Assembly: GCA_035480235.1 (NCBI GenBank)
Contig: DATIHX010000011.1
Span: forward strand, 66,146 to 121,225
Source of the DNA: Candidatus Saccharimonadales bacterium
Lineage (GTDB): Bacteria > Patescibacteriota > UBA1384 > 2-12-FULL-50-11
Reading direction: 5' to 3'
DNA: 55,080 nucleotides
Part shown: positions 2,017-52,116 of the stretch, piece after piece
Layout: the number at the start of each line of letters is the position of its first letter
How positions within the stretch are numbered: the first letter of the stretch is position 1
Program-made: the position numbers and the translations under genes
Notes under the pieces: generated by a model
Database searches by the model: none
Told to the model about the DNA's origin: nothing
What the model saw: only the letters and a program-made list of their open reading frames with translations

Positions 2017-3153
2017 ATGAGAAAGCTTTGGCTGGCGGCGGCGATCATCGGTTTACTGTTACCGCTAGGTTTAGCTCGAGCCGCTGAATTCGCGACTAAC
2101 TCAAACGGCGACGTGACCGTCCCAGCCAGCGAGCATCACCATAATTTTTACACCGCCGGCCAAAGTATTACCGTTGACGCCGCAACCAGCGGCGATTTGG
2201 CGGCCGCCGGCCAAACTGTCGTGGTGAACGGCAACGTCGAAAATAGCTTGTTTGCGGCCGGCCAAACCATCAATCTGCGGGGAAACGTCGGCAATAACCT
2301 GCGCGCGGCTGGCGATAACGTCACTATTTCCGGCACTATAAACGGCGACGTTTTCGCCGCCGGTTCAACCGTTACCGTGACTAAGGACGCGGTAGTTAAT
2401 GGCGGTCTTTATACTGCCGGTTCAAATGTTGTTATTAACGGCAGCGTCAAGGGTGAAGTTCGCTCGGCCGGGGCGCTAACCATTAGTGGCCAGACCGGCT
2501 CGGTCACCAGTTACGGCGAACTGACGGTGAAGAAAACTGGCATCGTTAACGGCAACGTCAACGTTCACGCCGCCCAAGCGGCGACCATCGAAACCGGCGG
2601 CACCGTAACAGGCGTTAACCATTTCACTCTGGTCAAAAACCGAACTAATAACCTGGCGATTTTCAGTAGTTTCGCCGCCCTGGCCGGCTTACTCGGCTCG
2701 TTAATCCTGGGTCTGGTGCTAGTTTTCCTGCTGCCCAAACGCTGCCAAATTATCGTCGATAAAGCCCTGAGCGCGCCGACGGCGGCGATCGGCTACGGTT
2801 TGGCGCTGCTGATTGTCTTCCCGATCGCCATCTTCATTATCGCGATTACCTTGATTGGCTTGCCTTTGGCCATGCTACTTGGGTTAGTTTGGTTGCTACT
2901 AGCGGTACTGGGCGGTTTCATCGGCAAACTCGCCTTTGGCGCCTGGCTCTACCAGCTCGTTACAAAAAAACCGGCCGTCACTAATTGGCTGACCTTGCTA
3001 ATTGGCCTAGTCGCCAGCGCTTTGATCGGTTTTATCCCCTTCATCGGGCCGTTGGTAAAATTCGCCTTCTTCTTGTTGGGCCTCGGGGCACTCGGCCGGT
3101 ATTTTTGGGCGACCTTCCGCGCGGAACCGACCCCGGCTTTAGAGGCCAAATAA
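2017..3153 (+). CDS. Membrane protein with N-terminal bactofilin-like (polymer-forming beta-helix) repeats and a polytopic C-terminal domain
   Basis: 378 aa. Signal/anchor sequence, then iterated AAGQxVxVxGNV / AAGSxVxIxG repeats, then about 5 TM helices. Confidence 0.6.
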   Translation: MRKLWLAAAIIGLLLPLGLARAAEFATNSNGDVTVPASEHHHNFYTAGQSITVDAATSGDLAAAGQTVVVNGNVENSLFAAGQTINLRGNVGNNLRAAGDNVTISGTINGDVFAAGSTVTVTKDAVVNGGLYTAGSNVVINGSVKGEVRSAGALTISGQTGSVTSYGELTVKKTGIVNGNVNVHAAQAATIETGGTVTGVNHFTLVKNRTNNLAIFSSFAALAGLLGSLILGLVLVFLLPKRCQIIVDKALSAPTAAIGYGLALLIVFPIAIFIIAITLIGLPLAMLLGLVWLLLAVLGGFIGKLAFGAWLYQLVTKKPAVTNWLTLLIGLVASALIGFIPFIGPLVKFAFFLLGLGALGRYFWATFRAEPTPALEAK

Positions 3154-5232
3154 CTTATTGAAACGACGGCCGCGGATCGCTAAAGCCCCGGCCAGGAAAC
3201 TGGCCACTGCCAACGCCGCGGTTTGAGCGAAGTCGTTTTCTTGGGCGCCAGCAACTAGCGTCGGTTGGTTCGACCCAGCGGCGAGTGGCAACGAAGCGCC
3301 GGCAGCGGCGGCGACCGTTGAGCTTTTTTTGACTTGAGTGGTCAGAGTTTTGCCAACGGTTTTGGTGGTAGTCGAGCTGACGGCACTGGTGAGTGCAGCC
3401 GTCGTAGCGTTGATGACACCAGTAGCCGGGGCGCTAATCAAACTAGCGCCACTGCCTAAATACCAAGTTTCGATGGCGCCGCTCGACGAGTTGTAGTCGG
3501 TCACTAGCGGCAACTGGGCGAGTGAGCCGGCAGCATAGTTAAGAAGGTTGGTAGGGAAATGAAACTTTAAAAAGCCGCCAGCGGTCGTGAGGTTAAAGCT
3601 ATCGCTGGCGGTGGCGCTCAAGTTGGCCTTGACGGTGACGGCTTGGCCGAGGTGGTTAACCAGCTCATCGACGCCAAACTCACTCAACGGCCAAGTTTGA
3701 GCCGAACCGATCGCTAGATCGTCCAGCGCCGAAAGGATGAGCCGCTTGGTTTGACTGGTACTGATTTGACCGGTAGCGGTGGCTAATTTGTTAACACCGC
3801 CTGGTAGCGCGCCTTTGCTATTATCGAGAAAAACTTGAATTCCGCCGGTTTCGTCTTGCAGGTAAAGCGCTTCGCTACCAACGGCGCCGACCGGCACGCT
3901 GACTACCCCACTGATTTCGGCCAAGGCGTTAGCCGGTAGGCTGCGGGCCTCACCAATTGAGACGGTGTAGGTCGGTGCCGTTGGTAAGGTGACGCGCGAC
4001 CAAGATTGAAAATCGGTTGATTGATACAGGTTAGGGTTACTGGAAGAGTTGAGCAGTAAAATCAACCCGAGACCGGCTTGGGCGTAGACAGCCTGGAGTT
4101 GGCTGGAGCTGGCCCAGGCGCCGGTGACTTTTTTGAAGGCGTTAGTATTGTCGGCGGCAAATTGCACCAAGCTGGCACCGGGCTGCCAAGCCAACCAGCC
4201 GCCAGGCACTTTTTTCAGTGCCGTCAAATCGCCGTCGGTGGTCGCTAACTGCCAACTCTCCGGCCCGTCAGAAACAAAATAGCTTGGGCCAACTTTCACC
4301 AATAGCCGATTGGTGCCGTCCGCGGCCGCTAGGTTGGTCAAATCGCCGGGCGGCGCTGTTAAAACGTGGCTTGTTAAGCCGAACTCCCACCAACTCGCAT
4401 CGGAGAGCCGTAAAAAGACGCGGTCGGCCAGGAGTTTGAGGCCGGTCACGCTTCGGCCGGTTAAATTTAGAGCGAAAGTTTCTAGTAAATTACTGTGCCA
4501 AACATACAAGTTGTTGGCCGCGTCGGTGGCGGCAACTAAACCGCCGCCGGTTGTAATGTTTTGGACACTGACCGGGAAAAGCGGTTGGTAATTAGTGGGG
4601 TTTAACTGGTAGTAAAACTGGCCGTCGGCGCAACTAAAACCGACGAGCGGCGCCGTCACCAAGACGCTGCCGGCGCAAGGGAAGCTAGCCACCACCGGCC
4701 AACTGTGATTTTGCCACTGCAGCACCCGAACAAATTGATTGAACTGCTGGCCGAAAAACAGCTGGCCGCCGACCCGGTAGAAACGGTTGGTTTGGTCGAG
4801 GGCGATCAACGGGGCGGCCGTCAGCGGCATTAGGGTCCAGTCGTTAGTAATTTCGGTGGCGGCAAGGGTTTGGCCCGTTTGACTGCCAACAATTATCGCA
4901 TCGCCCAAGCTCTGAAGCGCCAAGGCGTCGCCCGAAATGTTGCCAAGCTCGGTGGCGGCCAGGCCGGTCGAGCGATACAGCTTGGTCAGCGAGCCGGTTT
5001 TAGCGGTAAAAACTAATTGGTTGCTGAAAACAATCGGCGCCGCACTCAATTGGTCGCTGGTTATGCTGGCCAGTTGCCAGGTTTTGCCGGGCGCGCGCAG
5101 CCGGTACAAATTCTGGTTGGTGGTGGCACTGACGGCTGAACCGAGGCTTTGAAGCGAAAAGGCCCGGCTGCCATTGGGAAGTAAAGAAACCGCCAATAAA
5201 GCGAAAATTGTGAGTTTTACCAAAGCCCGCAT
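3139..5232 (-). CDS. Secreted/cell-surface protein, beta-propeller-like N-terminal region, OB-fold-like segment, C-terminal TM anchor
   Basis: 697 aa. Signal peptide, recurring W-containing blades (WQLAS, WTLMPL, WQLATTDG, WSRVTLP) and the segment GVVSVPVGAVGSEALYLQDETGGIQVFL. C-terminal hydrophobic helix followed by RGRRFNK. Confidence 0.6.
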   Translation of the reverse strand: MRALVKLTIFALLAVSLLPNGSRAFSLQSLGSAVSATTNQNLYRLRAPGKTWQLASITSDQLSAAPIVFSNQLVFTAKTGSLTKLYRSTGLAATELGNISGDALALQSLGDAIIVGSQTGQTLAATEITNDWTLMPLTAAPLIALDQTNRFYRVGGQLFFGQQFNQFVRVLQWQNHSWPVVASFPCAGSVLVTAPLVGFSCADGQFYYQLNPTNYQPLFPVSVQNITTGGGLVAATDAANNLYVWHSNLLETFALNLTGRSVTGLKLLADRVFLRLSDASWWEFGLTSHVLTAPPGDLTNLAAADGTNRLLVKVGPSYFVSDGPESWQLATTDGDLTALKKVPGGWLAWQPGASLVQFAADNTNAFKKVTGAWASSSQLQAVYAQAGLGLILLLNSSSNPNLYQSTDFQSWSRVTLPTAPTYTVSIGEARSLPANALAEISGVVSVPVGAVGSEALYLQDETGGIQVFLDNSKGALPGGVNKLATATGQISTSQTKRLILSALDDLAIGSAQTWPLSEFGVDELVNHLGQAVTVKANLSATASDSFNLTTAGGFLKFHFPTNLLNYAAGSLAQLPLVTDYNSSSGAIETWYLGSGASLISAPATGVINATTAALTSAVSSTTTKTVGKTLTTQVKKSSTVAAAAGASLPLAAGSNQPTLVAGAQENDFAQTAALAVASFLAGALAIRGRRFNKLFGL

Positions 5233-5248
5233 ACCCTCGTTGTACAGA

Positions 5249-5256
5249 CATTTCTG
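5249..5256. repeat. Left 8-bp target-site duplication CATTTCTG
   Basis: Identical octamer abuts the outside of both terminal inverted repeats (5249-5256 and 10712-10719). Confidence 0.75.
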
Positions 5257-5281
5257 CCTACATATCCCCTTATGACAAGTA
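5257..5281. repeat. Left terminal inverted repeat (IR-L) CCTACATATCCCCTTATGACAAGTA
   Basis: The reverse complement of 10687-10711 is CCTACATATCCCCTCTTGACAAGTA, which matches at 23 of 25 positions. Confidence 0.8.
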
Positions 5282-5378
5282 GAACTGTTCTTAGCGCATC
5301 CCTTCTATGGAGCTGAAACTCAGCATCTTGTTTAAATTACTTAAAACGATCAGAGTTTAGTAAATGGAGGAAAAAATA

Positions 5379-5921
5379 ATGAGTTCAATTTCAAAGATAA
5401 TATTAAGCGTAATTGTCACGGCTCTAGTGGTTGGAAGCGGAACGTACTACTTGCTGAAAAATCAGTCAGTGGCCAAACCGACTACCACAACCGCTCCTGC
5501 CAAGGCTTTAACAGTCAATGAGCAGTTAGCTAGAGTTCTATCGATTGACGCCGAAGCAATGAATAAAATATTGCTTGAGGATGTTCTCAAGCCTACACTT
5601 GGCACGGTGACTTTAGTGGGGGTTAGTGAGACCAACAACTGTTCGGCCTTTGAGGGCGCTTGCGGCAGAACCTTAACCCAAGAAGAACACGATAGCATCG
5701 GCGTTCAAGACCCGTTATTTGTCTACGAAACCACCAAAGAGATTACTCCAACAGACATGAAAAAACTACAGAACCAGTTAAATAAGAGCCAGTATCCAGT
5801 TCAAGAAAGCACAGCCTCGTCAATCTTGGCTCACGGCGCCGGAGGAGATAACACATTTCTGTCAATTACCGCCGACGTCAACGACACGGGGCGCTTTCAG
5901 ATTAGAGTATTGGTCTACTAA
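5379..5921 (+). CDS. Hypothetical N-terminally anchored protein (element cargo)
   Basis: The ORF opens at 5364, but the ATG at 5379 has GGAGG 8 nt upstream. One TM helix, then a soluble domain. No recognisable motif. Confidence 0.5.
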   Translation: MSSISKIILSVIVTALVVGSGTYYLLKNQSVAKPTTTTAPAKALTVNEQLARVLSIDAEAMNKILLEDVLKPTLGTVTLVGVSETNNCSAFEGACGRTLTQEEHDSIGVQDPLFVYETTKEITPTDMKKLQNQLNKSQYPVQESTASSILAHGAGGDNTFLSITADVNDTGRFQIRVLVY

Positions 5922-5924
5922 AAG

Positions 5925-6416
5925 TTACTTAAATCCGGTTGCTGGATCAAAGCTAACGTAATTAGTGCCATCGAACTGCTCAAGCTGGATCTGACCCTGG
6001 TTAATTGTTACCAGTAGGCTGATCCGCTTATTAGGTTTAACTGTCAGCGAGTGAGGCTCACTGCTCTTTGGAAAAATTGGCAACGAATAAACCGTTTTGT
6101 TAGTAAAGCTCTGGAAGTTTATGCTCCTGATAGAGTAGTTTGCAGCACCCGACTGAGCAACTAAATCGCAGTGAAACGCTCCTGCTTGCGATGGTAAGGA
6201 CTTTTCCGGACAATCGCCGTTTATCAAGAGCAAACCCAACCCCGGCTGTCCATCTTCGAGCACGTTAATGTCTAGAGATGTAGTCAGTAAGTTGGCCTGC
6301 CCATTTGTTGTAGTTTCGAGTGCGTTGAGGCGGGAGTGAATAATTATTATGCCGCCAGCGATTAGACCGACTACTGCAAAACCAAACGTTATATATCGTA
6401 GGTAGCGTGTTCTCAT
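5925..6416 (-). CDS. Hypothetical N-terminally anchored protein, translationally coupled to the upstream 974-aa gene (element cargo)
   Basis: ATGA overlap: ATG at 6416-6414 shares bases with the TGA stop at 6415-6413. An alternative start lies at 6428. One TM helix plus a roughly 130-aa domain. Confidence 0.55.
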   Translation of the reverse strand: MRTRYLRYITFGFAVVGLIAGGIIIIHSRLNALETTTNGQANLLTTSLDINVLEDGQPGLGLLLINGDCPEKSLPSQAGAFHCDLVAQSGAANYSIRSINFQSFTNKTVYSLPIFPKSSEPHSLTVKPNKRISLLVTINQGQIQLEQFDGTNYVSFDPATGFK

Positions 6417-9337
6417 GAGCTCAGACATTCGTTATACCATTGCTGGAACTGCGGAACGACTACAGCTCCACTAGCATTTTGACCTTGAAGACGATGCAGT
6501 AAGTTATCCCGTTGAGTTAGCAAGTCGGTTGGCGGCGTCCCAATATTTTGCTGCCAATACGCAGTTATATTATTGAGTCGATCAATAACTTGTTGATGAT
6601 AGACGCAAATGCTCGATAGAGATGTTGCTAGCGATTCAGGATATTTATCAACGTTGGGATCAAGAAGATCGGCGGCAGAGTATCCAATAGTTGCAGCACA
6701 ATTTGAAGAAGATGTGTACGCGCAATTAAAGGCGGCGATATCCCAAAGCGTTCTGCCGGTCGGGCTGGCCAGTTGTTGATCGAGCGACTGCTTATAATCA
6801 GTGGAAGAAGCTGAAATAGGCACCTGACCTGAGCCGTAAGAATAGTCGAGGGCATGAAGCATTTCGTGATCCGCGGTAGTTTGCAGCAAATCACCACTCA
6901 TATAATTAACTTCACGCGAGTCTAAGGTAAGCCCTCTGTCGGGATGGGCGGGGTCAAAATACCCGTTAGGTTCGGATTTAATGTCGGAACCAATACGCAC
7001 GACAGTCAGGATGGTTAAGGGAAAGTTTTTCCAAGTCTTGTATCGAATCACTTCTTTTTGAACAGTAGGCAGGGTGTTTTTCCTACTGAGTTGAGTTGTG
7101 TCGGGCGTGTCGTAAAAACATACCTTAAAACTATTTGTGCTGAAGTCGTCACATTCTTTATGGATGAGCATCAGAAAATTTCCGGTGCTGATCGATGAAT
7201 TGTACGAAAATGAGGGCGGGTTATTCTGGTCTTGAGTGGCGTCATCCGGTCGTGTTTTTTCAGGCCAGGTGTAGACGACATCGCCTGAGACAGGACTTCT
7301 ATAAGCAAGAGCGGAAGCACTGATTAGATGGTATGTAGACTGGATTAGTAAGGGGTCGGTTTGGGATGAAAACGCCGCAATGCCGTTGGTGACATTGGTG
7401 CTAAATTGATGGCCGCTTGAGTTGGCGATTATTACTTTCCCGCCGAGCGGGGAAATTGAAGCGTAATTTTGATCGTAATACAATTCGTCTTTCGGTTGGG
7501 GAGAAATAATTAGCAATCCATCGAGACTGAATGTGGCATCGTAAATCCGGTTGGTATCCACGTGAACAGTTTGGGTCAGATTAGGGAAACTAACATCGCC
7601 CATACTAACCGTAAGAGTGTAATCTGCTGTGCCGCTAAGCAGGCTGATAACTGGAGCTACTATCGCTCTTCCTCTAACGTTACTAACACTTTGATAGCGG
7701 GTTGTGCCGCTGACTACCGTTAAAACGGCGCCCGTGACTGGGTGATTATCAGCCGAAGTCATTGAGGCGACAATTGCGGGGGCGGTTAGAAAATTGTCGG
7801 TTCGAGCGTCATTATTACCGTAATCCGTTTCAGGCACAGCATGAGTAGGGTTAACAATAAAATCGAGTCCAACAATATTATGGTGATTAAGGAGGGCTTC
7901 GCTTGCGAAAGCATTCGATAAAAGTTTAATTCGGTGATTGTCGGCAGAAAATACTAGGTTGGGAATGGTTGCTGATGAGTCGGGACTTATCGTGGTCGAA
8001 AGGCTGTCTGAATACTCGTACAGATGTTTGTTTGGCTCGTTACCGGGATCATAGAGAGAAAGTTGGTAGGGAGCACTTCCTTGAAAAGTCCCTGGACCTA
8101 AGTTTTTGATTTTCAGGCCGGAGATAGTAACACTCGAGATATTTGAGCCGAAACTTGCTCCCATTGGCAGATTGTCGTAGCTGTGGCCAGTAGTGTCTCT
8201 GAGCGTAACTGTTGCTCCACTAGAGTCAGGAGTTAGATCTGGCTGACCGATTGTCACTGTAGCTGACGCTGTTTTATTGCCGTTGGCCCAAGTGCCGGTG
8301 ACTGTGAAAGTAACTGTTTGGGTTAGAGCAGCTGTGGTTCTGCTGCCGCCAGAGACCGGGGTAACCGCCCCAATTCCTTGATCAATCGTCATTGAGGTTG
8401 GATTGCCGGTTGAACCCCATGTGAGAACTGTGGTTTGGCTGCTACCGAGGGTGGACGGGTTGGCGGTTAGGGATACAGCGTGAGTACTTTGCCAGGGCGA
8501 AGCGTTATACGTTGCCGTAACTGTGCCACTAATCCTCCCTGTTCCGGTTAAGGTAAAAAGTGTTTGTCGGGTAATCGAAAAACTGGTGGTAACGGTGTCT
8601 GTTTGAGGATCGGGACTGTTAATGTTGGTAACATCACCAACATTTTGATCAATAACTAAGCGACTATTGGTAGTATGGAGACCTTTGGCCCACCAGAGTG
8701 TCACGGTATTGTCCGTGCTATTAACTCGGCCGTTTAACGTGGCTGAGTTATCCCAACCGAACCGAGCTATAACTTGATGCGTCACCGTGCGGTAATACCC
8801 GAAACCATTAACGGTCGGCTGCCAGTTGCTGTTGGTTGTTTGGCAGTGCCAGCCAGTATATTGATCGATTGTATTTTGACCGCAATCGCGGAACCAGGCG
8901 GATGGATTATTCTGATAACGGTCATTAATCCATTTAGTTGAAACTGTTTGGCCCTGATGACCATCGTTAATGGTGCAACTACCAGTACTCGTGGCGGCAC
9001 AACTGGCCCAGTTTTGAGCAGTTGCGTAGTTGTAACCCGGTGGCGTGTAGTCGTTCTGGTTGCCAGTATATTCGGTTTTGAATTGGAGTAAGGCAAAGAC
9101 GGAATTATACGTTGCGGTCGTGTCGCCAAGTTTGCATTGTAAAACACTGTCAATATTCCCGGCCGCAACTTGGTTTAGTGTGCTTAGAAGATTGTTACAG
9201 CTTGTGATAGTCAGCGGTGGCGGGGTTTGAGCAAGGGCAGTATTTGTCGCCCTAGAACCAACTGAAAAGGCGGCGGCTATTAAGCTAACAATTATTAGAA
9301 TTCTAGCGAGCCCCCTCATATCTACTATTACAGTCAT
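6413..9337 (-). CDS. Large secreted multidomain protein with putative C-terminal zinc metalloprotease (HExxH) domain (element cargo)
   Basis: 974 aa. Signal peptide (ends AQ), a Cys/Trp-rich N-terminal module and two Ig-like repeats (TLxW...IDQxxGxVT...TQTxTFTxTGT). Then CARDB-like and carboxypeptidase-regulatory-like beta segments, and HEMLH encoded at 6854-6868. Confidence 0.75.
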   Translation of the reverse strand: MTVIVDMRGLARILIIVSLIAAAFSVGSRATNTALAQTPPPLTITSCNNLLSTLNQVAAGNIDSVLQCKLGDTTATYNSVFALLQFKTEYTGNQNDYTPPGYNYATAQNWASCAATSTGSCTINDGHQGQTVSTKWINDRYQNNPSAWFRDCGQNTIDQYTGWHCQTTNSNWQPTVNGFGYYRTVTHQVIARFGWDNSATLNGRVNSTDNTVTLWWAKGLHTTNSRLVIDQNVGDVTNINSPDPQTDTVTTSFSITRQTLFTLTGTGRISGTVTATYNASPWQSTHAVSLTANPSTLGSSQTTVLTWGSTGNPTSMTIDQGIGAVTPVSGGSRTTAALTQTVTFTVTGTWANGNKTASATVTIGQPDLTPDSSGATVTLRDTTGHSYDNLPMGASFGSNISSVTISGLKIKNLGPGTFQGSAPYQLSLYDPGNEPNKHLYEYSDSLSTTISPDSSATIPNLVFSADNHRIKLLSNAFASEALLNHHNIVGLDFIVNPTHAVPETDYGNNDARTDNFLTAPAIVASMTSADNHPVTGAVLTVVSGTTRYQSVSNVRGRAIVAPVISLLSGTADYTLTVSMGDVSFPNLTQTVHVDTNRIYDATFSLDGLLIISPQPKDELYYDQNYASISPLGGKVIIANSSGHQFSTNVTNGIAAFSSQTDPLLIQSTYHLISASALAYRSPVSGDVVYTWPEKTRPDDATQDQNNPPSFSYNSSISTGNFLMLIHKECDDFSTNSFKVCFYDTPDTTQLSRKNTLPTVQKEVIRYKTWKNFPLTILTVVRIGSDIKSEPNGYFDPAHPDRGLTLDSREVNYMSGDLLQTTADHEMLHALDYSYGSGQVPISASSTDYKQSLDQQLASPTGRTLWDIAAFNCAYTSSSNCAATIGYSAADLLDPNVDKYPESLATSLSSICVYHQQVIDRLNNITAYWQQNIGTPPTDLLTQRDNLLHRLQGQNASGAVVVPQFQQWYNECLSS

Positions 9338-9385
9338 CTTTTATGGTTCGGTTGTCAACGAAATTTGGCCGTAAATGGATTAGTA

Positions 9386-9411
9386 AACGGTATCAGGCCT
9401 GATACCGTTTT
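9386..9411. terminator. Perfect 12+12 palindrome AACGGTATCAGG/CCTGATACCGTT followed by TTTT
   Basis: Read directly. It lies between the transposase and the 974-aa cargo gene. The T-run is on the + strand, so its role is uncertain (insulator or terminator). Confidence 0.4.
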
Positions 9412-9833
9412 GGGTACTTTTTCAGGTTATGTTTTTAAGAATTACTACGTTTTATATAAATATACCCGTCCAAAATGTAACAACCGTTGTTACAAAATTG
9501 AAACTAACTACTGGCTAGAAAAAGAAAAATCGTGAGTCCTTTATATATACATATTGATGCAGCTGTTGCACCAAAAAAGATCAGCTGCTGATCCTAAATC
9601 TCGATCAATTCCAGATACACTCAACAAAAAAGTGGAGTCCTTATAAATATATATTCATATTCATCGTTCTGCCTCTAAAACAATTCTGCTAAAGTAACCA
9701 CACATGGACAAGAAAAAACCTCAAAATCAAAAACCACAACCAGAGCCAACAATAGAACCAAAAAAATCAGTAGACGAAAAATACCTCCCCGACACAACCG
9801 AAGAAAAATTTACTGACTTACTGCACAAAGCGA

Positions 9834-10661
9834 TCAAACCCGGGCAATCAGTTCCTGAAACAGAGACCGAGTCGGACCAAACCGATGGTTATAGTGAAAA
9901 AGATACATCTCCAGATAACTCTGAAGATACTTCCGTCTAACAGCGCCATTGTAAGTTCCAAGTAACCCTCGTTTCATAAAGCTCCACAAGCCGTCGATAT
10001 AGCCGGTATGAATATCTTTACTACGGACATATTCGCCGTCTTTGTGCTTAATTGCTTCGTGCTGGTATCCGTGACGGCCTAAGAGTGAGTAGGCTATGTG
10101 CTCATCCGTAATAACTCGGCTATTCTTCTCAACATGTTCAAAAACAAACTTGAAATAACTAACCGGATGGTAGGCTTCCGTTTGTTTGATGCGAGCCTTA
10201 CCTTTTCGCTCGACAACTCCGACAACAGTCGCTTTGCTGCGTAAATCTTTACTCCCTTTCTGCTTACCGCCAACATACATTTCATCGGCCTCGACAGTGC
10301 CAGTTAGTTGATTGTTCGGGATACTTTCGGCCATAAGTTCTCGAATCTTCCGAGCCATTCGCCAAGCGCACTTGTAAGTGACACCCAACTGTCGCTCAAG
10401 TTCTTTAGCACTGACCCCGTTTTTAGCAGCAGAAAATAGATAGACGGCATAGAACCAGTCTGTTAAGCGCGTCGAGGATTTTTCAAAAATAGTACCTTTG
10501 AGAGGGTGGATTTGCTTGCCTTCGCCATTGGCGTAGCACTTACGTTTACTAACACGATAATAGCTTTTAGCGAGCTGCGGGTATTTGGCCTTGAAAACAT
10601 AGTCCAGACAAATATCATCAGTTGAGAACTGGGCCCTAAAGTCTTTGATCGTGTACTTCAT
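9834..10661 (-). CDS. tnp: IS1595-family (ISXO2-like) DDE transposase
   Basis: MKYTIKDF... start (the ORF extends to a TTG at 10679). WFYAVYLF...GVSAKELERQLGVTYKCAWRMARKIR helix-turn-helix, EADEMYVGG, VITDEH, IDGLWSFMKRG...YLxxYLxMYLFHYNHR. Confidence 0.85.
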   Translation of the reverse strand: MKYTIKDFRAQFSTDDICLDYVFKAKYPQLAKSYYRVSKRKCYANGEGKQIHPLKGTIFEKSSTRLTDWFYAVYLFSAAKNGVSAKELERQLGVTYKCAWRMARKIRELMAESIPNNQLTGTVEADEMYVGGKQKGSKDLRSKATVVGVVERKGKARIKQTEAYHPVSYFKFVFEHVEKNSRVITDEHIAYSLLGRHGYQHEAIKHKDGEYVRSKDIHTGYIDGLWSFMKRGLLGTYNGAVRRKYLQSYLEMYLFHYNHRFGPTRSLFQELIARV

Positions 10662-10686
10662 ATATCCAATATCTCTCAAGCCATAT

Positions 10687-10711
10687 TACTTGTCAAGAGG
10701 GGATATGTAGG
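10687..10711. repeat. Right terminal inverted repeat (IR-R)
   Basis: Reverse complement matches IR-L at 23/25 positions. Confidence 0.8.
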
Positions 10712-10719
10712 CATTTCTG
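10712..10719. repeat. Right 8-bp target-site duplication CATTTCTG
   Basis: Identical to 5249-5256. Confidence 0.75.
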
Positions 10720-10748
10720 ACGGTCAACAAGCTGCTGGTGCGAGCGAG

Positions 10749-11342
10749 CTAGCTCGAGTCGTCGCCGCTGGCGCCGCGGTGCAGCTCGATCACTAAACGG
10801 GCCAGCCGGTTGGGGTCGGGGACGTCCTTAATCGTAAAATAACCGCCCAAACCTGGATGATTTTCGTTGTCGCTAGTGCCTTCACCGGCCGTTTCAATCA
10901 CCAGCAACCCGTAGTTAAACAGGCTCTGGAAAAAGCCTTCCATCCGAGCCGAGACGTCTTCAATTTGGGCCAGGCCAAGCTCGGAGACTTCCCGCGACAG
11001 TAGCCCGAGCTGGGCCACGTTAATAATCCGTTCGTTGGTGATGAAGATGACGTCGTAGTAATACTCTAGCCAGGCGCCGAAAAGAAAAGTTAGCAAAAAC
11101 AGATAAAACGACGAACTGATTAAAAGAATAATTGTTCGAGCTTCGTTGAAAGTGTGGGGAAAGGCCAACGGCCCGATGATGTAAACCAAGATTGGAAAGA
11201 TCGCCATCGCCAAAACAATCAGTAATGTGCCTAAAAAGCCGGCTGGGTGCTTGCGGACCACCGCCTGAATTGTTTCGGCCGGATGAAGCGATAAAAAGAG
11301 AAAGGCCGGGTCGTTTTGGTTAACCGTCGTGGTTATTGCCAT
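10749..11342 (-). CDS. Membrane protein with bacterial PH (bPH_2/YdbT-like) domain
   Basis: 197 aa. Two TM helices, then FITNERIINV...IEDVSARMEGFFQSLFNYGLLVIETAG, which is typical of bPH domains. Confidence 0.6.
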   Translation of the reverse strand: MAITTTVNQNDPAFLFLSLHPAETIQAVVRKHPAGFLGTLLIVLAMAIFPILVYIIGPLAFPHTFNEARTIILLISSSFYLFLLTFLFGAWLEYYYDVIFITNERIINVAQLGLLSREVSELGLAQIEDVSARMEGFFQSLFNYGLLVIETAGEGTSDNENHPGLGGYFTIKDVPDPNRLARLVIELHRGASGDDSS

Positions 11343-29215: not shown

Positions 29216-30139
29216 TTAAATCTCTTTAAGTCTATCCAAAATATATCGCCGAACTTCCTTTAGAGTTGCGTCAGTTACAATTGTAGTCTCAAATCCGCTA
29301 GGATCTTCTACGAAACGAGGGTACTTATCGGGTAGCTCAAGACGATAGTTTTTCGTATTGGTTTTGAATAACCCCGGCTGCATAATATATGCCATTAGTA
29401 TTTCATCGTTCGCCCACGGCCTAGCAAATGCTGTCGGTAATCCAGCTGATTGCAAACCACTCCGCATGCTTTTCATACTCTCTTTATTTAAGGCTGCTAG
29501 TAATTTTACAGCTGGGTGATTGATGCTTTCTAGCTCCTCAATTTCTGAGTCTGTCCAGGGGTCGTCGGCGCGAAAAGTTAGGTCGCCAGGCACTATTGTC
29601 AGATTGAATCCAGCATTTAAGACTAAACTTGCCGCTGCTGAATCATTACAGAAGTTGTGCTCAAACCCACGGGGGACCTGAACGCTATCAACTATTGGAG
29701 GATTTATCATCCCGCCCATAACGACAAGGCGTTTAACCTTTTGAGGAAGGGTTTTATCCAAGCGAAGCGCTTCGGCTACATTCGACAAAGTCCCAATGCC
29801 CGCAAGAACTAATTGACCGTTGTATTTATTGGCTAGCTCAATAATTAAGTGAGCGGCGCTTTGATTGTCGACAGGGAATCTCCGATAATTCTCCAGGCCA
29901 AATACCGCGCCTTCCCAACTAAAGTTATTGGTGGGGACCCCGATTCCTGGCGACACTGGCGTCTTGTCTTTGCCGAGCAAGCTTAAAAGTTTAAGAGCCG
30001 CTTGGGCTCGAAACTGAGTATCGTCAGTAACCGTGGATACCCCGACTAGCTTAATATCTTGGTAGATGGCGGCGAGCGTAAGGGCAGCAGCGTCCGTCAT
30101 TTCACTGCCGATATCTGTATCCAGGTGGAGGTGGATCAT
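29216..30139 (-). CDS. Nucleoside hydrolase (IUNH family)
   Basis: 307 aa. N-terminal Asp cluster HLDTDIGSEMTDAA, LVLAGIGTLSNVAEAL, VVMGG. AT-richer than the flanks. Confidence 0.75.
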   Translation of the reverse strand: MIHLHLDTDIGSEMTDAAALTLAAIYQDIKLVGVSTVTDDTQFRAQAALKLLSLLGKDKTPVSPGIGVPTNNFSWEGAVFGLENYRRFPVDNQSAAHLIIELANKYNGQLVLAGIGTLSNVAEALRLDKTLPQKVKRLVVMGGMINPPIVDSVQVPRGFEHNFCNDSAAASLVLNAGFNLTIVPGDLTFRADDPWTDSEIEELESINHPAVKLLAALNKESMKSMRSGLQSAGLPTAFARPWANDEILMAYIMQPGLFKTNTKNYRLELPDKYPRFVEDPSGFETTIVTDATLKEVRRYILDRLKEI

Positions 30140-40897: not shown

Positions 40898-41482
40898 ATG
40901 TCGTTGCCAATTACTGCAAAGCAGTTGATAGAAGACGAGCTTTCCGGAGGAGAGTTGCTGGAAACCCAAAAAGAGATTCTTCAGCTATTTGGCGGGGAAC
41001 TTCTTATGAGCTTGCTTGCTGGTGCCAATCTATCGGGAGGCATTGGAATCGCCGAAGAAGATTGGGTTAGGGTTCGTCAATCCATGTCCATCGCCGGGTC
41101 TTCTACTAGTGCTAACGACTTCTTCGTGTCGCTAGACAAAGCGCTGGCTACCGAACCAGAGGACCCCGATTCGCTTGCTGGAGTGTTGGAGCAGGAAGAA
41201 TGGGCGGGGCTTCTTAGTATCTTAGCTCATGCAGTTTGTCTTTCGGTCAACGTGGATAATATTGTAAATGATGCGTTCCAAGAGCGCCGCGGCGATATCG
41301 ATGAAGGCATAGAATGCGTTTCAATGTATGAATACGTTCAGCGCGCAGTTGCACGAGAGGCTAATAATTCCTTGGGTCGTTTGCAGCAAGCTCTTTCTTG
41401 GCTTCCCTTTATCCACATACTAAGCATTTGCTTACGAAATCCCTCACCATGCTTTCAGCACCCTGAACAGTTCGATCTTTAG
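40898..41482 (+). CDS. Hypothetical acidic cytoplasmic protein
   Basis: 194 aa. Strong SD, own promoter-like element and terminator. No recognisable family. Confidence 0.5.
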   Translation: MSLPITAKQLIEDELSGGELLETQKEILQLFGGELLMSLLAGANLSGGIGIAEEDWVRVRQSMSIAGSSTSANDFFVSLDKALATEPEDPDSLAGVLEQEEWAGLLSILAHAVCLSVNVDNIVNDAFQERRGDIDEGIECVSMYEYVQRAVAREANNSLGRLQQALSWLPFIHILSICLRNPSPCFQHPEQFDL

Positions 41483-44830: not shown

Positions 44831-44914
44831 TGCGCGAGAGAGGACTCGAACCTCCACGGGGTTGCCCCCATATCCACCTCAAGGATACGTGTATACCAAT
44901 TTCACCACTCGCGC
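44831..44914 (-). tRNA. tRNA-Leu (anticodon GAG), type II with long variable arm
   Basis: Cloverleaf folded by hand. Acceptor GCGCGAG/CTCGCGC, anticodon loop TTGAGGT, variable arm TGGGGGCAACCCCGT, T-loop TTCGAGT. No encoded CCA. Confidence 0.9.
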
Positions 44915-45020
44915 TTATCAACGAACCGTGCCGAGGGTGGGAAAATTTCGTCCGCCTGCTGGCGGACTCAGCTTCTCACTCCACTGCGTTACGTTCGCAG
45001 TGAACCCACATCCGACACCG

Positions 45021-45104
45021 TGCCTGAGAGAGGACTCGAACCTCCACGGGGTTGCCCCCATACGCACCTGAAGCGTACGTGTATGCCAATTTCACCACTC
45101 AGGC
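45021..45104 (-). tRNA. tRNA-Leu (anticodon CAG), type II
   Basis: Same body as the neighbouring tRNA. Acceptor GCCTGAG/CTCAGGC, anticodon loop TTCAGGT. No encoded CCA. Confidence 0.9.
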
Positions 45105-45146
45105 TAAGAGCTCAATCAATTTTACCAGATTTGAGGGTTGGATTCA

Positions 45147-46463
45147 CTACTTAACCGACCACAGCGCGAAAGCTTGGAGCCAGTCGGTGGGCGAATCGGC
45201 TACCCAGGGGTCAACGGAGCGAATGGCGTTGGAAACCACGTAGCTGGCTTTTTGCTCGCCTAAAATTACCGCCACACCTTGGTTTTGGAGCGTTTGGTGG
45301 AGCGTCTCGATTTGGCCTTTCCGGCCGGCGATGTTGGTTTGAGCGCGAATTTGGTTAATCGCCGTTTCCACCGCGTCGCTTTTGACGCCGCTTAAGTTGT
45401 TGCCCGGCGGCCGAACCTGGCTTTGGTCCCAGAGGTAAAACGGGTCGAGTTCGTAGCTGTAATCGAGGCCACCTAAGAGGGCTTGAAAATTCCGAGCCGG
45501 GGCAATTTGGTCTTTAATGTCACTTTCGCTTTTCAGTTCCAACGTCACTTTAGCGCCGGCTGCCTGCCATTTGCCCACCAGATCTTTAGCCATCGATTGG
45601 TACGGCTCGCTCGACGGCGCTGTTAGGGTGAACGGTTGGGTGGGGATACTGCCACCGGCGGCGATTTTCTGGCCGAAGCTCTGGTCTCGAAACGGCGCCC
45701 GGTTCAAGTTAAAAAAGACGGCGTAATAAAGCGACAGGCCGAACGGGTGAAGTTGGTAGCCGCGCGGGGCGGTGGTGGTTTCCAGGTGGGCACCGTCGAT
45801 CTTATGGTTATTCAGCGCCGCTTGCAGTGCCTTGGCGGTGGGGTAGGCGTTAATAATCACCCGGTTGATGTAACTATTGGCCGCACCGGAGCGAGTGTTA
45901 CGCACCAAAACCGCTGACTGGTTGGTTAATTTACTCACCTTAAACGGCCCGAAGTCGAAAAGCGGCTCAGCCAACAAAAGCGGCAAGCTCGGGTCGGCGT
46001 TTTGCAAAGTAATGACCAGCTGATTATTCTCGGTGGTCACCGCCGCATCACCCAGCAGGTTGGCTTCTAAATTCAAACTATTCTGAATCTCGCCCAGCGG
46101 CACTTGCGGCAAAAGCGTCAAGTGAAAAACCGTCTGGTCGGTGCTGGCCGACCAATCTTTCACCAATTGTTTGGTGAGATTGCCGTTTTGGTCGAACCTA
46201 AAAAGCCCGGCTTTGGTCAAATGAGCGGCTTCGTCTTCGATCTGTTGGCGATCGCCGACTACGCCGTCCACAAACGTCCCACCCTGCGACGGCGTGTTGC
46301 TATTGTTGCCGGCGTACTGGCGGAACCAGAAGGTACCGCTAATCACAATGACGACCGACAGCAAAGCTAGCAAACCTTTTTCGTGCTCTCCTAAGTAATT
46401 CTTGACGCTTTCGCGATAGGAGGTCACCCTCCGTTTTAGGGCCAGCCAGCGGTTTAATGGCAT
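45147..46463 (-). CDS. Membrane-anchored family-5 solute-binding-protein-like protein (peptide/nickel SBP fold)
   Basis: 438 aa. N-terminal TM. Pattern typical of SBP_bac_5 (GLFRFDQNGNLTKQLVKDWSASTDQTVFHLTL..., YYAVFFNLNRAPFRD, DPFYLWDQSQ). Confidence 0.55.
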   Translation of the reverse strand: MPLNRWLALKRRVTSYRESVKNYLGEHEKGLLALLSVVIVISGTFWFRQYAGNNSNTPSQGGTFVDGVVGDRQQIEDEAAHLTKAGLFRFDQNGNLTKQLVKDWSASTDQTVFHLTLLPQVPLGEIQNSLNLEANLLGDAAVTTENNQLVITLQNADPSLPLLLAEPLFDFGPFKVSKLTNQSAVLVRNTRSGAANSYINRVIINAYPTAKALQAALNNHKIDGAHLETTTAPRGYQLHPFGLSLYYAVFFNLNRAPFRDQSFGQKIAAGGSIPTQPFTLTAPSSEPYQSMAKDLVGKWQAAGAKVTLELKSESDIKDQIAPARNFQALLGGLDYSYELDPFYLWDQSQVRPPGNNLSGVKSDAVETAINQIRAQTNIAGRKGQIETLHQTLQNQGVAVILGEQKASYVVSNAIRSVDPWVADSPTDWLQAFALWSVK

Positions 46464-46464
46464 G

Positions 46465-46683
46465 TCAGTTGGTGAGAATTTGAGCGATCACGATAACTAA
46501 GAAAACCGTCGCCAGTAAAATTGTTCCCCGAAAAAGCAGCTTTTCGATGCCCCGACGGCCGCGATAACTGATGTCGGCCCCGCCGAACGCGCCACCGATA
46601 CCAGTGCCGCGATGCTGCAGGAGGATGCTAACCACCAGCAAAACGGCGGTAATGATCTCTAAAATTTCCAGTAGGTTTTTCAC
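46465..46683 (-). CDS. secG: Preprotein translocase subunit SecG
   Basis: 72 aa, two TM helices, LLQHRGTGIGGAFGG motif. Confidence 0.85.
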   Translation of the reverse strand: MKNLLEILEIITAVLLVVSILLQHRGTGIGGAFGGADISYRGRRGIEKLLFRGTILLATVFLVIVIAQILTN

Positions 46684-46751
46684 CGTGTTGAAAGCCTAAC
46701 CCAGTTTTAATCACTCGTCAAGGCAAAAGTGGGGATTTTAGGTGACGACTT

Positions 46752-46825
46752 TGGAGGCCACGACCGGAGTCGAACCGGTCTACGCGGTTTTGCAGACCGC
46801 TACCTAACCGCTCGGTCACGTGGCC
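46752..46825 (-). tRNA. tRNA-Cys (anticodon GCA), CCA encoded
   Basis: Acceptor GGCCACG/CGTGGCC, anticodon loop CTGCAAA, T-loop TTCGACT, discriminator U followed by CCA. Confidence 0.9.
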
Positions 46826-46934
46826 ATACCGTAATAGTATACCTGTAGTTAGGGCGAAAAACGAGCGCTTTGTCAGTTGAAATGGAGAGGATTTGGCTGA
46901 AGGCGGCAGTAAACCGAAGAAATCAGACCAGCTC

Positions 46935-46982
46935 GCGAGAGACGGGAATACTTCACTCCGTTACGTGTTCCCGAACTCTCGC
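46935..46982 (-). pseudogene. tRNA-Gly-derived minihelix / partial tRNA-Gly duplicate
   Basis: The minus strand reads GCGAGAG-TTC-GGGAACAC-13 nt-GTATTCCC-GT-CTCTCGC. The 5' 7 nt and 3' 15 nt are identical to the acceptor/T-arm of the adjacent tRNA-Gly. Confidence 0.45.
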
Positions 46983-47020
46983 TCACATGACAAAACCACC
47001 CGGAGGGTGACTGTCATGTG

Positions 47021-47091
47021 AGCGAGAGACGGGAATCGAACCCGCGTATCTTGATTGGCAACCAAGCGTACTACCATTGTACTACTCTCGC
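47021..47091 (-). tRNA. tRNA-Gly (anticodon GCC)
   Basis: Acceptor GCGAGAG/CTCTCGC, anticodon loop TTGCCAA, T-loop TTCGATT. No encoded CCA. Confidence 0.9.
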
Positions 47092-51358: not shown

Positions 51359-52116
51359 AGAAAATCTGGGCGGTCGCTAAAAATACTTTTAAAGAAACCG
51401 TTCGCGACAAGTTGCTTTACGCCTTGCTCGGATTTGCTGTTTTAGTGATCGCCGGTAGCTTGCTGGCCGGCTCGGTTTCGCTCGGTCAAGACCAGCGGGT
51501 GATCGAGGATTTTTCGCTCACCGCCATGCTGGTTTTTTTACTGATTATCACTCTTTTTATCGGCACTCAGTTGGTTAGGCGCGAAGTGGAGCGCAAAACT
51601 ATTTATTTATCGCTGACCAAACCGATCAGTCGCGACCAATTTTATTTGGGTAAATTCGTCGGGCTGTGCTTGACTAGCGCCGTCTCGGCGGTGGTGATGG
51701 GCACCATTTTCCTCATCGTGCTGTATCTCAAAACCAAAAGTTTTGAATGGGTGGCGCTTTGGGCGATCGGAGCATTAATTTTGGAAATTTGGTTGTTAAC
51801 GGCGGTGAGTTTACTCTTTAGTAGTTTTGCCGCGCCAATTGCCAGCGCCATTTACACCTTCGGGTTAGTACTCGTCGGCCATTCCAGCCTCACGATTTGG
51901 TCAATCGCCCAAAAAAGCGGCGGTTTTTTGAAGGGGACTTTGGAGGCCGTTTATTACGTTTTTCCAAATTTGGAAAAATTTAATTTACGTAACGAAGTAG
52001 TCTACCACCTTCACCCCAACCCAACTCAAACAGTGGCAATTATACTTTATTTCGTCGGCTACACGGTTGCAGTGCTGTTGCTGGGAATGAGCGTTTTCCG
52101 CCGCCATGAGTTTTGA
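51355..52116 (+). CDS. ABC-2 family permease (NosY-like)
   Basis: 253 aa, 6 TM helices. 4-nt overlap with the ATPase gene. Confidence 0.75.
   Translation: MKKIWAVAKNTFKETVRDKLLYALLGFAVLVIAGSLLAGSVSLGQDQRVIEDFSLTAMLVFLLIITLFIGTQLVRREVERKTIYLSLTKPISRDQFYLGKFVGLCLTSAVSAVVMGTIFLIVLYLKTKSFEWVALWAIGALILEIWLLTAVSLLFSSFAAPIASAIYTFGLVLVGHSSLTIWSIAQKSGGFLKGTLEAVYYVFPNLEKFNLRNEVVYHLHPNPTQTVAIILYFVGYTVAVLLLGMSVFRRHEF

Follow-up and report, generated by a model that had tools for sequence, protein, structure and literature searches.

In this study, a 55,080-bp stretch of a Candidatus Saccharimonadales genome (contig DATIHX010000011.1 of assembly GCA_035480235.1, positions 66,146 to 121,225; referred to here as the window, whose own numbering is used throughout) was investigated, and we found that its segment 5257-10711 is very probably a single unit transposon, that is, an insertion sequence (IS) of the IS1595 family which carries passenger genes, a type of element that is already described and is also called a 'transporter IS'. 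An earlier note on this DNA had proposed such a cargo-bearing unit with intact ends and an 8-bp duplication, and our data support that proposal, which also withstood the tests named with it, on the repeat match, on the state of the locus in relatives and on the duplication habit of the family. The whole 5,455 bp is regarded as one insertion because the orthologous sites of related genomes are empty, no internal repeat is found, the genes inside share a low G+C content at third codon positions (GC3), and the same repeat is found at other flanks.

The element is delimited by two terminal inverted repeats (IRs) of 25 bp each. The left repeat, IR-L (CCTACATATCCCCTTATGACAAGTA, 5257..5281, plus strand), lies distal to the transposase gene and has the motif TATCCC..TGACA..AGTA of the clade of relatives described below; it equals the right, transposase-side repeat, IR-R (10687..10711, minus strand, reverse complement CCTACATATCCCCTCTTGACAAGTA), at 23 of 25 positions. 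Directly outside both repeats, and bracketing all 5,455 bp, stands the perfect octamer CATTTCTG, whose left copy (5249..5256) is located upstream of a host gene for a 697-amino-acid (aa) protein, 16 bp from its start codon (5232), and whose right copy occupies 10712..10719, neither being assigned to a strand. The 25-mers of the entire window were scanned for inverted pairs with at least 23 matches and at most 10 kb apart, with ten shuffles of the window as control; only the IR pair and two local hairpins (9383-9412 and ~51953-51984) were recovered, and the shuffles gave 0-2 pairs. By our own estimate, about 1e-3 such pairs would be expected by chance, a figure to be multiplied by 4^-8 for the duplication. 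The repeat match and the octamer at both ends, as first described, were all reproduced, and the match goes far beyond chance in the shuffle scan. A third copy of the repeat was not found in the window with up to 6 mismatches allowed. The duplication begins with CA and ends with TG, which makes the repeat match extendable by two bases outward (5255-5256 and 10712-10713); this extension is coincidental, and 5257 and 10711 are taken as the true ends because of the 8-bp duplication and the geometry of the clade, in which six bases precede TATCCC.

Within the element there is only one transposase open reading frame (ORF), located at 9834-10679 on the minus strand, which starts either at TTG 10679, giving 281 aa, or at ATG 10661, giving 275 aa, the latter form being the choice of the gene callers. 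Pfam PF12762 (DDE_Tnp_IS1595) recognizes it at 5.5e-27, with 95 bits where 27 are required, and NCBIfam NF033547 ('IS1595 family transposase') at 1e-49, with 169 bits where 75 are required, and since nearly all of the ~2,500 homologues found are 265-290 aa in length, the enzyme is considered full length. The intact ISXO2-like DDE transposase reported inside the right end is thus a full-length IS1595-family enzyme, and the proportion given for it, about 0.85 kb of 5.46 kb, agrees with the 0.83-0.85 kb of 5,455 bp obtained here. Across 27 aligned sequences, D126, D186 and K230 do not vary, and residue 223, seven before K230, is Asp in the window and in two 91%-identical relatives and Glu in the remaining 24. 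The catalytic residues of the family were reportedly given in the 2009 IS1595 paper as D, D and then E, N or H, with K or R seven residues later; the pattern D126-D186-D223-K230 fits this rule with Asp at the third position. The nearest annotated plasmid-borne IS1595 transposase is at most 38% identical and the named ISPma1 and ISCsp2 stand at 30%, and under the usual ISfinder identity rule the element would be a new IS. A promoter-like site, TTGACA-17-GATATT (10668..10696, minus strand, 10 of 12 matches), is directed into the transposase gene, with its -35 hexamer lying within IR-R and its TTGACA conserved in the repeats of relatives. Judging from this placement and conservation, it is the likely transposase promoter; the overall number of promoter-like sites in the promoter scan equals the shuffle expectation, so it is only these two features that single the site out.

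The state of the insertion site was observed in relatives. Homologues of the 697-aa protein (3139..5232, minus strand), with 58% and 54% identity, are present on three contigs of two related lineages, L150 and L151 (Logan SRR21686418 and SRR21686416) and L152 (GCA_034680565.1), all of which display the gene order CHAP, 63-aa ORF, bPH (197 aa), 698-aa gene, DUF8173, 101-aa ORF, 507-aa ORF and GH26. The insertion in the window separates the 697-aa gene from the upstream bPH-domain gene (197 aa, 10749..11342, minus strand), whose stop codon is 29 bp from the duplication; in the three contigs, merely 39-49 bp lie between the bPH gene and the 698-aa gene, without transposase, repeat or cargo. When 5257-10719 is excised from the window, a 53-bp spacer is obtained which aligns with the spacers of the relatives (GAGAAATTTCTGTGTACAAC in L150 against CAGAAATG followed by TCTGTACAAC in the window). 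The uninterrupted spacers in all three contigs bear out the earlier placing of the insertion between the 697-aa and bPH genes, and no relative was met that carries the cargo at this locus without repeats and transposase, the spacer being uninterrupted there and the cargo absent. A word-indexed search of 5.8 billion proteins with the 974-aa cargo protein gave, outside its own cluster, no homologue with a coverage above 16%, and an exhaustive HMMER search returned no relative outside that cluster above 31% identity; because this protein has no close homologue outside its own cluster, the cargo is considered absent from the related genomes. An assembly or binning chimera would also bring together DNA of differing composition, as is seen between the element and its flanks, and one public assembly does break at the junction. 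The chance of such an artefact is close to nil, as the independent contigs L002 and L006 (SRR9179560), L004 (SRR9179562) and L005 (GCA_964636455.1 contig 5) cross both junctions at 100% identity, and a perfect duplication around matched inverted repeats is not expected from a chimera. The Logan contigs of SRR9179560, SRR9179562 and SRR9179563, as well as GCA_964636455.1 contig 5, are identical to the window and together span both junctions.

With reference to composition, the element has a G+C content of 45.1%, whereas the left flank has 54.5% and the 10 kb to the right 49.4%, and the GC3 of its genes is 0.495 (185-aa gene), 0.482 (167-aa gene), 0.445 (974-aa gene) and 0.467 (transposase), against a mean of 0.604 (standard deviation 0.059) for the 39 ORFs outside it, in agreement with the remark in the earlier note that the element is AT-richer than its surroundings. 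The transposase end was also found elsewhere. Two contigs, L009 (Logan SRR6032603) and L010 (3300009873 of the Joint Genome Institute, JGI), harbor a transposase with identities of 91% at the protein and 84% at the DNA level, with a repeat identical to IR-R which adjoins an unrelated flank (...TTAATTAACTCTTG followed by CCTACATATCC..., in short ...AACTCTTG followed by CCTACAT...), and a third, L011, has the variant repeat CCCACCTATCCCCTCTTGACAAGTA next to yet another flank. The exact right boundary is confirmed by this identical repeat at a different flank. L009 and L010 agree with the window over the first 31 nt of the element although the transposase gene has diverged by 16%, which points to functional constraint on the repeat. 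The L003 contig (SRR9179563) ends 31 nt into IR-R, where the first difference between the window element (C, position 32) and the type of L009, L010 and L011 (T) occurs, and there may be a second related element in that sample.

It could be supposed that the mobile unit is only a short IS of ~1.2 kb, made up of IR-R, the transposase gene and ~300 bp of backbone, with the cargo as an unrelated island and IR-L as a solo or relic repeat 4 kb off. The DNA homology with L011 does stop ~300 bp past the transposase, ordinary-looking chromosomal genes follow there, and the cargo module is chromosomal and without transposase linkage in two other contigs, L153 and L154. Against this stand the perfect duplication that brackets the full 5,455 bp, the lack of any internal repeat copy above chance (best 15/25 inside the element, against a shuffled background of 14-17), the related genomes in which neither the cargo nor the IS is present at this site, the GC3 of the cargo, which agrees with the transposase and not with the host, and the fact that none of the 26 validated relatives is shorter than 1,379 bp and several measure 3-6.6 kb. 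A short IS is therefore very improbable, and the reading of one cargo-carrying unit is retained. The L011 contig itself was considered as proof of cargo swapping and rejected, since no IR-L is reached before the contig ends and the genes downstream have a chromosomal look.

To place the element among its relatives, a transposase alignment was used to scan one genome per species, which gave at least 587 loci, of which the best 80 were kept (L012-L091). These 80 transposases are 36-47% identical to that of the window and come from Patescibacteria, Saccharimonadales, Acidobacteriota, Dehalococcoidia, Cyanobacteria, Proteobacteria and others. The ends were sought with a script that took the sequence just upstream of each transposase gene and looked for its best inverted match downstream, and the repeat motif GGTAATTATCCCTTGACAnCAnGTA (GGTAATTATCCCTTGACA..GTA) proved common to 54 of the 80. 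Perfect 8-bp direct repeats stand directly outside the repeats in 26 of these 54, an outcome with a chance of ~1e-4 per locus (seven trims tried). The repeat-to-repeat length is 1,379-6,716 bp, with a median of 2.2 kb, over the 54 loci and 1,379-6,643 bp over the 26 with duplications, none of which is as short as a bare transposase gene with ends, and the transposase always lies at one end. The validated elements include L020 from the Saccharibacteria metagenome-assembled genome CAYMUP010000040.1 (6,643 bp, duplication CGAAATCC), L051 (4,786 bp), L037 (4,710 bp) and L091 (4,036 bp). These four are like the window element in the repeat core TATCCC..TGACA..AGTA, the 6 nt from tip to core, the perfect 8-bp duplications, the kilobases of variable cargo and the position of the transposase 50-100 bp inside one end; they are unlike it in a transposase protein of only 36-47% identity and in a cargo of cytoplasmic enzymes, toxin-antitoxin components and methylases. 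The 26 validated elements hold 60 further ORFs from scattered Pfam families, two of them IS1595 transposases themselves, and the passenger families include short-chain dehydrogenase (SDR), N6 DNA methylase, PemK/MazF, glyoxalase, DUF1828, DUF5680, PCC, Trypsin_2 and zeta toxin; none of this cargo resembles the 974-aa or 167-aa genes. The repeat geometry of the window, with six bases before TATCCC, is that of the clade. Cargo carriage is the rule in this transposase clade, and the view that a cargo-moving unit is unusual does not hold, since such units were described in 2009 as transporter IS and the motif recurs in 54 of 80 relatives, 26 of them with duplications. Since this widespread clade routinely bears 0.5-6 kb of variable cargo, annotation pipelines that look only for the transposase miss the true boundaries of its elements. 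We also considered, as a speculative and rather improbable extension, that the clade may be a general cargo shuttle among uncultivated bacteria including Patescibacteria, in which the conserved repeats would bear the transposase promoter, cargo would be exchanged at the boundary of a conserved 3' backbone with its duplicated module of box and hairpin, and a surface or host-interaction protease module would have been moved between lineages rather than captured once.

The IS1595 family in ISfinder includes subgroups with passenger genes of up to several kb. The term 'transporter IS' reportedly goes back to Siguier, Gagnevin and Chandler (2009, Res Microbiol 160:232). In the passage of PMC3129680 that cites the 2009 IS1595 paper, IS1595 copies with passenger genes are said to have been named 'transporter IS' (tIS) there. 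The window element shares with them a single DDE_Tnp_IS1595 transposase at one end, the repeats, the 8-bp duplication and unrelated passengers before the far repeat, and differs in its transposase identity of at most 38%, the CC tip of its repeats, the Asp third residue, the missing Pfam match to a zinc ribbon and the HExxH cargo. Members of the family usually have 8-bp target-site duplications at their flanks (PMC8101967), a habit which the earlier note had relied on and which the 26 relatives display as well. Another known system, Tn7052 (ISEc69-mcr-2-ORF-ISEc69), is a composite transposon formed from IS1595-family elements with an 8-bp duplication (PMC7835479). Both have an IS1595-family transposase that moves genes unrelated to transposition and both show an 8-bp duplication; Tn7052 has two full IS copies around its cargo, whereas the window element has one transposase gene, one repeat pair and no internal ends. 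A composite transposon is ruled out here by the single transposase gene and the lack of an internal repeat above chance.

From this layout, in which the transposase gene lies just inside IR-R and is followed by ~300 bp of backbone and then by ~4.2 kb of cargo up to IR-L, the way the element would move can be proposed. The transposase would bind both 25-bp repeats and move all that they enclose, the CATTTCTG duplication would arise on integration at cuts staggered by 8 bp, and the element would in this way have landed in the 53-bp spacer between the bPH and 697-aa genes. The IS has probably captured the module of the 974-aa and 167-aa genes, which is chromosomal in other genomes. This leaves the understanding of how IS1595 elements work unchanged. 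What is modestly new is the two-gene HExxH cargo, the clade-wide view of cargo carriage and the conserved 3' backbone, and the case, from an uncultivated bacterium, is a base-resolved one of a unit IS moving several genes of a surface or secreted module, which can be compared with orthologous empty sites.

Several observations weigh against this reading and must be set beside it. The third catalytic residue is the Asp223 already mentioned, where 24 of 27 aligned relatives have Glu, and the tip of the repeat is CC in the window and GG in the relatives. The Pfam zinc-ribbon model of the family, PF12760, has no match on the transposase at E <= 0.01; this model is present in only some of the transposase relatives, the N-terminus being conserved in the clade with only C18 and C42. 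The N-terminal zinc finger (Zn_Tnp_IS1595) is found in every IS1595 group except IS1016 (PMC8101967), and because the IS1016 group lacks it too, the missing match does not exclude membership of the family. In the lineages with empty sites, the orthologue of the 697-aa protein is only 54-58% identical, and a same-strain empty site (the 24-mer GTACAGACATTTCTGACGGTCAAC) is absent from the JGI metagenome contigs; exact-protein look-ups of both flanking genes gave filled or truncated contigs only. Beyond the shared backbone, L011 continues with a 193-aa protein and with MBL-fold and HIT proteins, the latter two housekeeping-looking; these genes may be another cargo or host DNA, and the contig ends before any IR-L. 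Again, no second copy with the same cargo was found in the genome, the JGI metagenome contigs or the viral contigs, so the movement of the whole unit is inferred from one insertion and from the behaviour of the clade. The exact transposase in its 275-aa form occurs once per assembly, and the 281-aa TTG form is not on record. The repeat core TATCCCCTNNTGACAAGTA was detected at 58 JGI metagenome loci, none with the CCTACA tip or cargo homology, and ~20 of these adjoin transposases of 36-51% identity; the full repeat pattern is absent from the viral contigs. Only the transposase end of the element has been seen elsewhere (L009-L011), never the whole unit.

Some of these observations would also suit a genuine insertion that is now a fixed, immobile relic, with the cargo behaving as chromosomal genes. 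The element is single copy in its genome with no other copy of the same cargo in the collections searched, IR-L and IR-R disagree at two positions, Asp stands in place of the clade's Glu as third catalytic residue, and no same-strain empty site was found. On the other side, the two copies of the 8-bp duplication are identical, the transposase ORF is unbroken and complete in length, the GC3 shows no drift to the level of the host, the Asp variant is also present in the 91%-identical relatives at other sites, and a contig of GCA_964636455.1, CAZWSM010000003.1, stops at the final base of the duplication and overlaps the next contig by 55 bp, as if some reads continue differently. A relic is possible and, on balance, unlikely. 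The base in question is window 10712, in the right duplication; the next contig of that assembly, CAZWSM010000005.1, starts at window 10766, crosses the element and reaches into the left flank, and no assembly break is seen at the left junction. A de Bruijn assembler breaks contigs where the last 55-mer lying wholly in the flank has two continuations. The break at the duplication fits such a fork in the graph, for example one made by an empty-site allele among the reads, which, with the left junction unbroken, is suggestive only. A recent event is in keeping with the perfect duplication, the intact ORF and GC3 values that are unameliorated; after it, the mobile unit may still be active. The insertion had been called recent from its perfect duplication; to this, the GC3 and the break at the junction add indirect support, and the same-strain empty site which would speak for it was not found.

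The passengers of the element are three ORFs, all with hydrophobic N-termini, in line with the earlier description of three secreted or anchored proteins. The first (5364..5921, plus strand) encodes 185 aa with an N-terminal membrane anchor and is convergent to the other two; it has no match in Pfam, NCBIfam, PADLOC or PHROGs and no relatives were detected, and the ORF that occupies its position in L154 does not resemble it. The second (5925..6428, minus strand) encodes a membrane-anchored protein of 167 aa, the partner of the 974-aa protein, and overlaps the stop codon of the third, large gene (6413..9337, minus strand), whose 974-aa product has a signal-peptide-like N-terminus, Ig-like repeats at ~250-370 and a putative zinc-metallopeptidase domain at the C-terminus. 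The 167-aa protein belongs to no Pfam family and is 30-31% identical to the ORF directly after the large homologue in L153 (3e-18) and L154 (6e-22), and because this partner is kept there, the two genes are regarded as a conserved module. A large HExxH gene and a gene for a membrane partner of ~160 aa, with stop and start overlapping or adjacent, were observed at 597-3680 of L153 and 8001-11821 of L154. The module adjoins rnpA-yidD-yidC in L153 and lies between aminoacyl-tRNA synthetase genes in L154 and L155, and no transposase was called on these three contigs; since the module is chromosomal elsewhere, it was probably captured by the IS here. The cargo thereby defines an uncharacterised two-gene family of a large HExxH protein and a small membrane partner. 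A reading of the cargo as a defence system was rejected, as PADLOC gave no match.

Concerning the 974-aa protein, most of its 352 HMMER matches are drawn by the Ig-like region (~250-370), with PF07679 recorded on two homologues, and about eleven distant proteins align over residues 365-973. In the resulting 12-sequence alignment, C729, C740, H824, E825, H828, D831, W865, Y874, E901, A904, C911, R949 and C971 are invariant, including the motif HExxHxxD (H824-E825-x-x-H828, D831) and a Glu 77 residues on (E901) in an E-A-F-A-E-E-like helix. The invariant E901 is located in a helix of the model as well and is, by sequence and model, the candidate third zinc ligand. AlphaFold2 on the last 261 residues with this alignment gave a predicted local distance difference test (pLDDT) of 88.5 and a predicted template modelling (pTM) score of 0.87, and the 50 PDB matches listed by Foldseek are without exception zinc metallopeptidases, almost all M1 gluzincins (IRAP, ERAP1, aminopeptidase N, LTA4 hydrolase). 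The protein shares with the gluzincins (M1) the HExxH and the downstream Glu, and the best matches of the model are almost all M1 catalytic domains; it differs from them in lacking a significant family match, in the 77 residues from HExxH to Glu and in its four invariant Cys. The fold matches count the other way by their weakness (best E = 0.017, probability up to 0.93, TM ~0.35, with nothing in the PDB at E <= 0.001), and so does the failure of Pfam, NCBIfam, PADLOC and PHROGs to match the protein, a phmmer search of the PDB being not significant and a profile search giving E >= 0.1. With the model and the alignment taken together, our best guess, at roughly even odds, is that it is a secreted gluzincin-like metallopeptidase with predicted protease activity. 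The protease label of the earlier note therefore finds backing in the invariant HExxH...E and the weak fold matches, and none in any curated family.

Between the 974-aa gene and the transposase gene lies a non-coding spacer of 496 bp (9338..9833, minus strand), of which the part from ~9520 to 9833 is the conserved IS backbone. The DNA homology with L011 (963-1240) runs ~300 bp beyond the transposase stop, to about window 9520, and the ~50 nt directly past the stop are conserved between the two as strongly as coding sequence. The backbone harbors two boxes of ~40 nt (TATATAnAAGGACTCnC followed by a T-run; 9522-9558 and 9623-9664, minus strand), ~100 nt apart, and a terminator-like hairpin (9577-9595, minus strand), and a backbone hairpin differs in a compensatory way between the window (GATCAGCAGCTGATC) and L011 (GTGCAGCAGCTGCAC). 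Perfect palindromes occur nearer the 974-aa gene, at 9385-9410 (AAACGGTATCAGG/CCTGATACCGTTT) and ~9476-9492 (TGTAACAACGGTTGTTACA). The boxes and hairpin are possibly a terminator, a regulatory site or a small RNA; Rfam matched nothing in 4800-11200 at E <= 1, and the whole spacer folds mildly better than its shuffles (z = -2.1). The '~500-bp structured spacer' of the earlier note accordingly stands in its length, its perfect hairpins and a duplicated box, while folding over the whole spacer is only mild. No relic end above chance was found internally, either in the window or in L011; a match of 14-15/25 at homologous positions (window ~9596-9620, L011 1151) was tried as an ancestral left end and rejected, its score being at background level and the homology continuing 60-90 bp beyond it.

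An ORF of 78 aa runs antisense at 9704..9940 (plus strand), overlapping the 3' end of the transposase gene, and its coding status is uncertain. It measures 68 aa in L011, where gene callers marked it too; independent calls of it exist in two assemblies, and it is a called gene in L005. Its start codon is conserved, the length difference is an in-frame 30-nt indel, and the conserved part, much of which overlaps the transposase gene, is 88% identical; L011 has the same 16 codons past the transposase stop (LPDTTEEKFTDLLHKA). The ORF may code for a genuine small protein or merely represent conserved DNA.

For the host, the consequences of the insertion can be proposed from the gene layout. The bPH and 697-aa genes are both on the minus strand in an operon-like layout, 53 bp apart in the reconstructed site, and together with the upstream CHAP gene they were probably co-transcribed before. 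The insertion point leaves the 697-aa gene its GAGGG ribosome-binding site intact, and a polar effect of the insertion probably changes the transcription of this gene. No outward-reading sigma-70-like promoter was detected at the left end in the promoter scan, and terminator-like hairpins are present on the minus strand at 5592-5573 and 5484-5463; because of these, the 697-aa gene may be silenced or may rely on read-through from the 974/167 operon.

Elsewhere in the window, two ORFs with a GC3 as low as that of the element (against the mean of 0.60) were observed, one at 29216-30139 (minus strand, 0.448), an inosine-uridine nucleoside hydrolase (PF01156, 1e-35), and the other at 40898-41482 (plus strand, 0.462), with no Pfam match; these may be other foreign genes. 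Four tRNA genes are clustered at 44831-47091 on the minus strand (44831-44914, 45021-45104, 46755-46825 and 47021-47091). Besides the hairpin at 9385-9410, the only other strong inverted repeat of the window is a near-perfect local palindrome at 51953-51984, with at least 23/25 matches between its overlapping arms.

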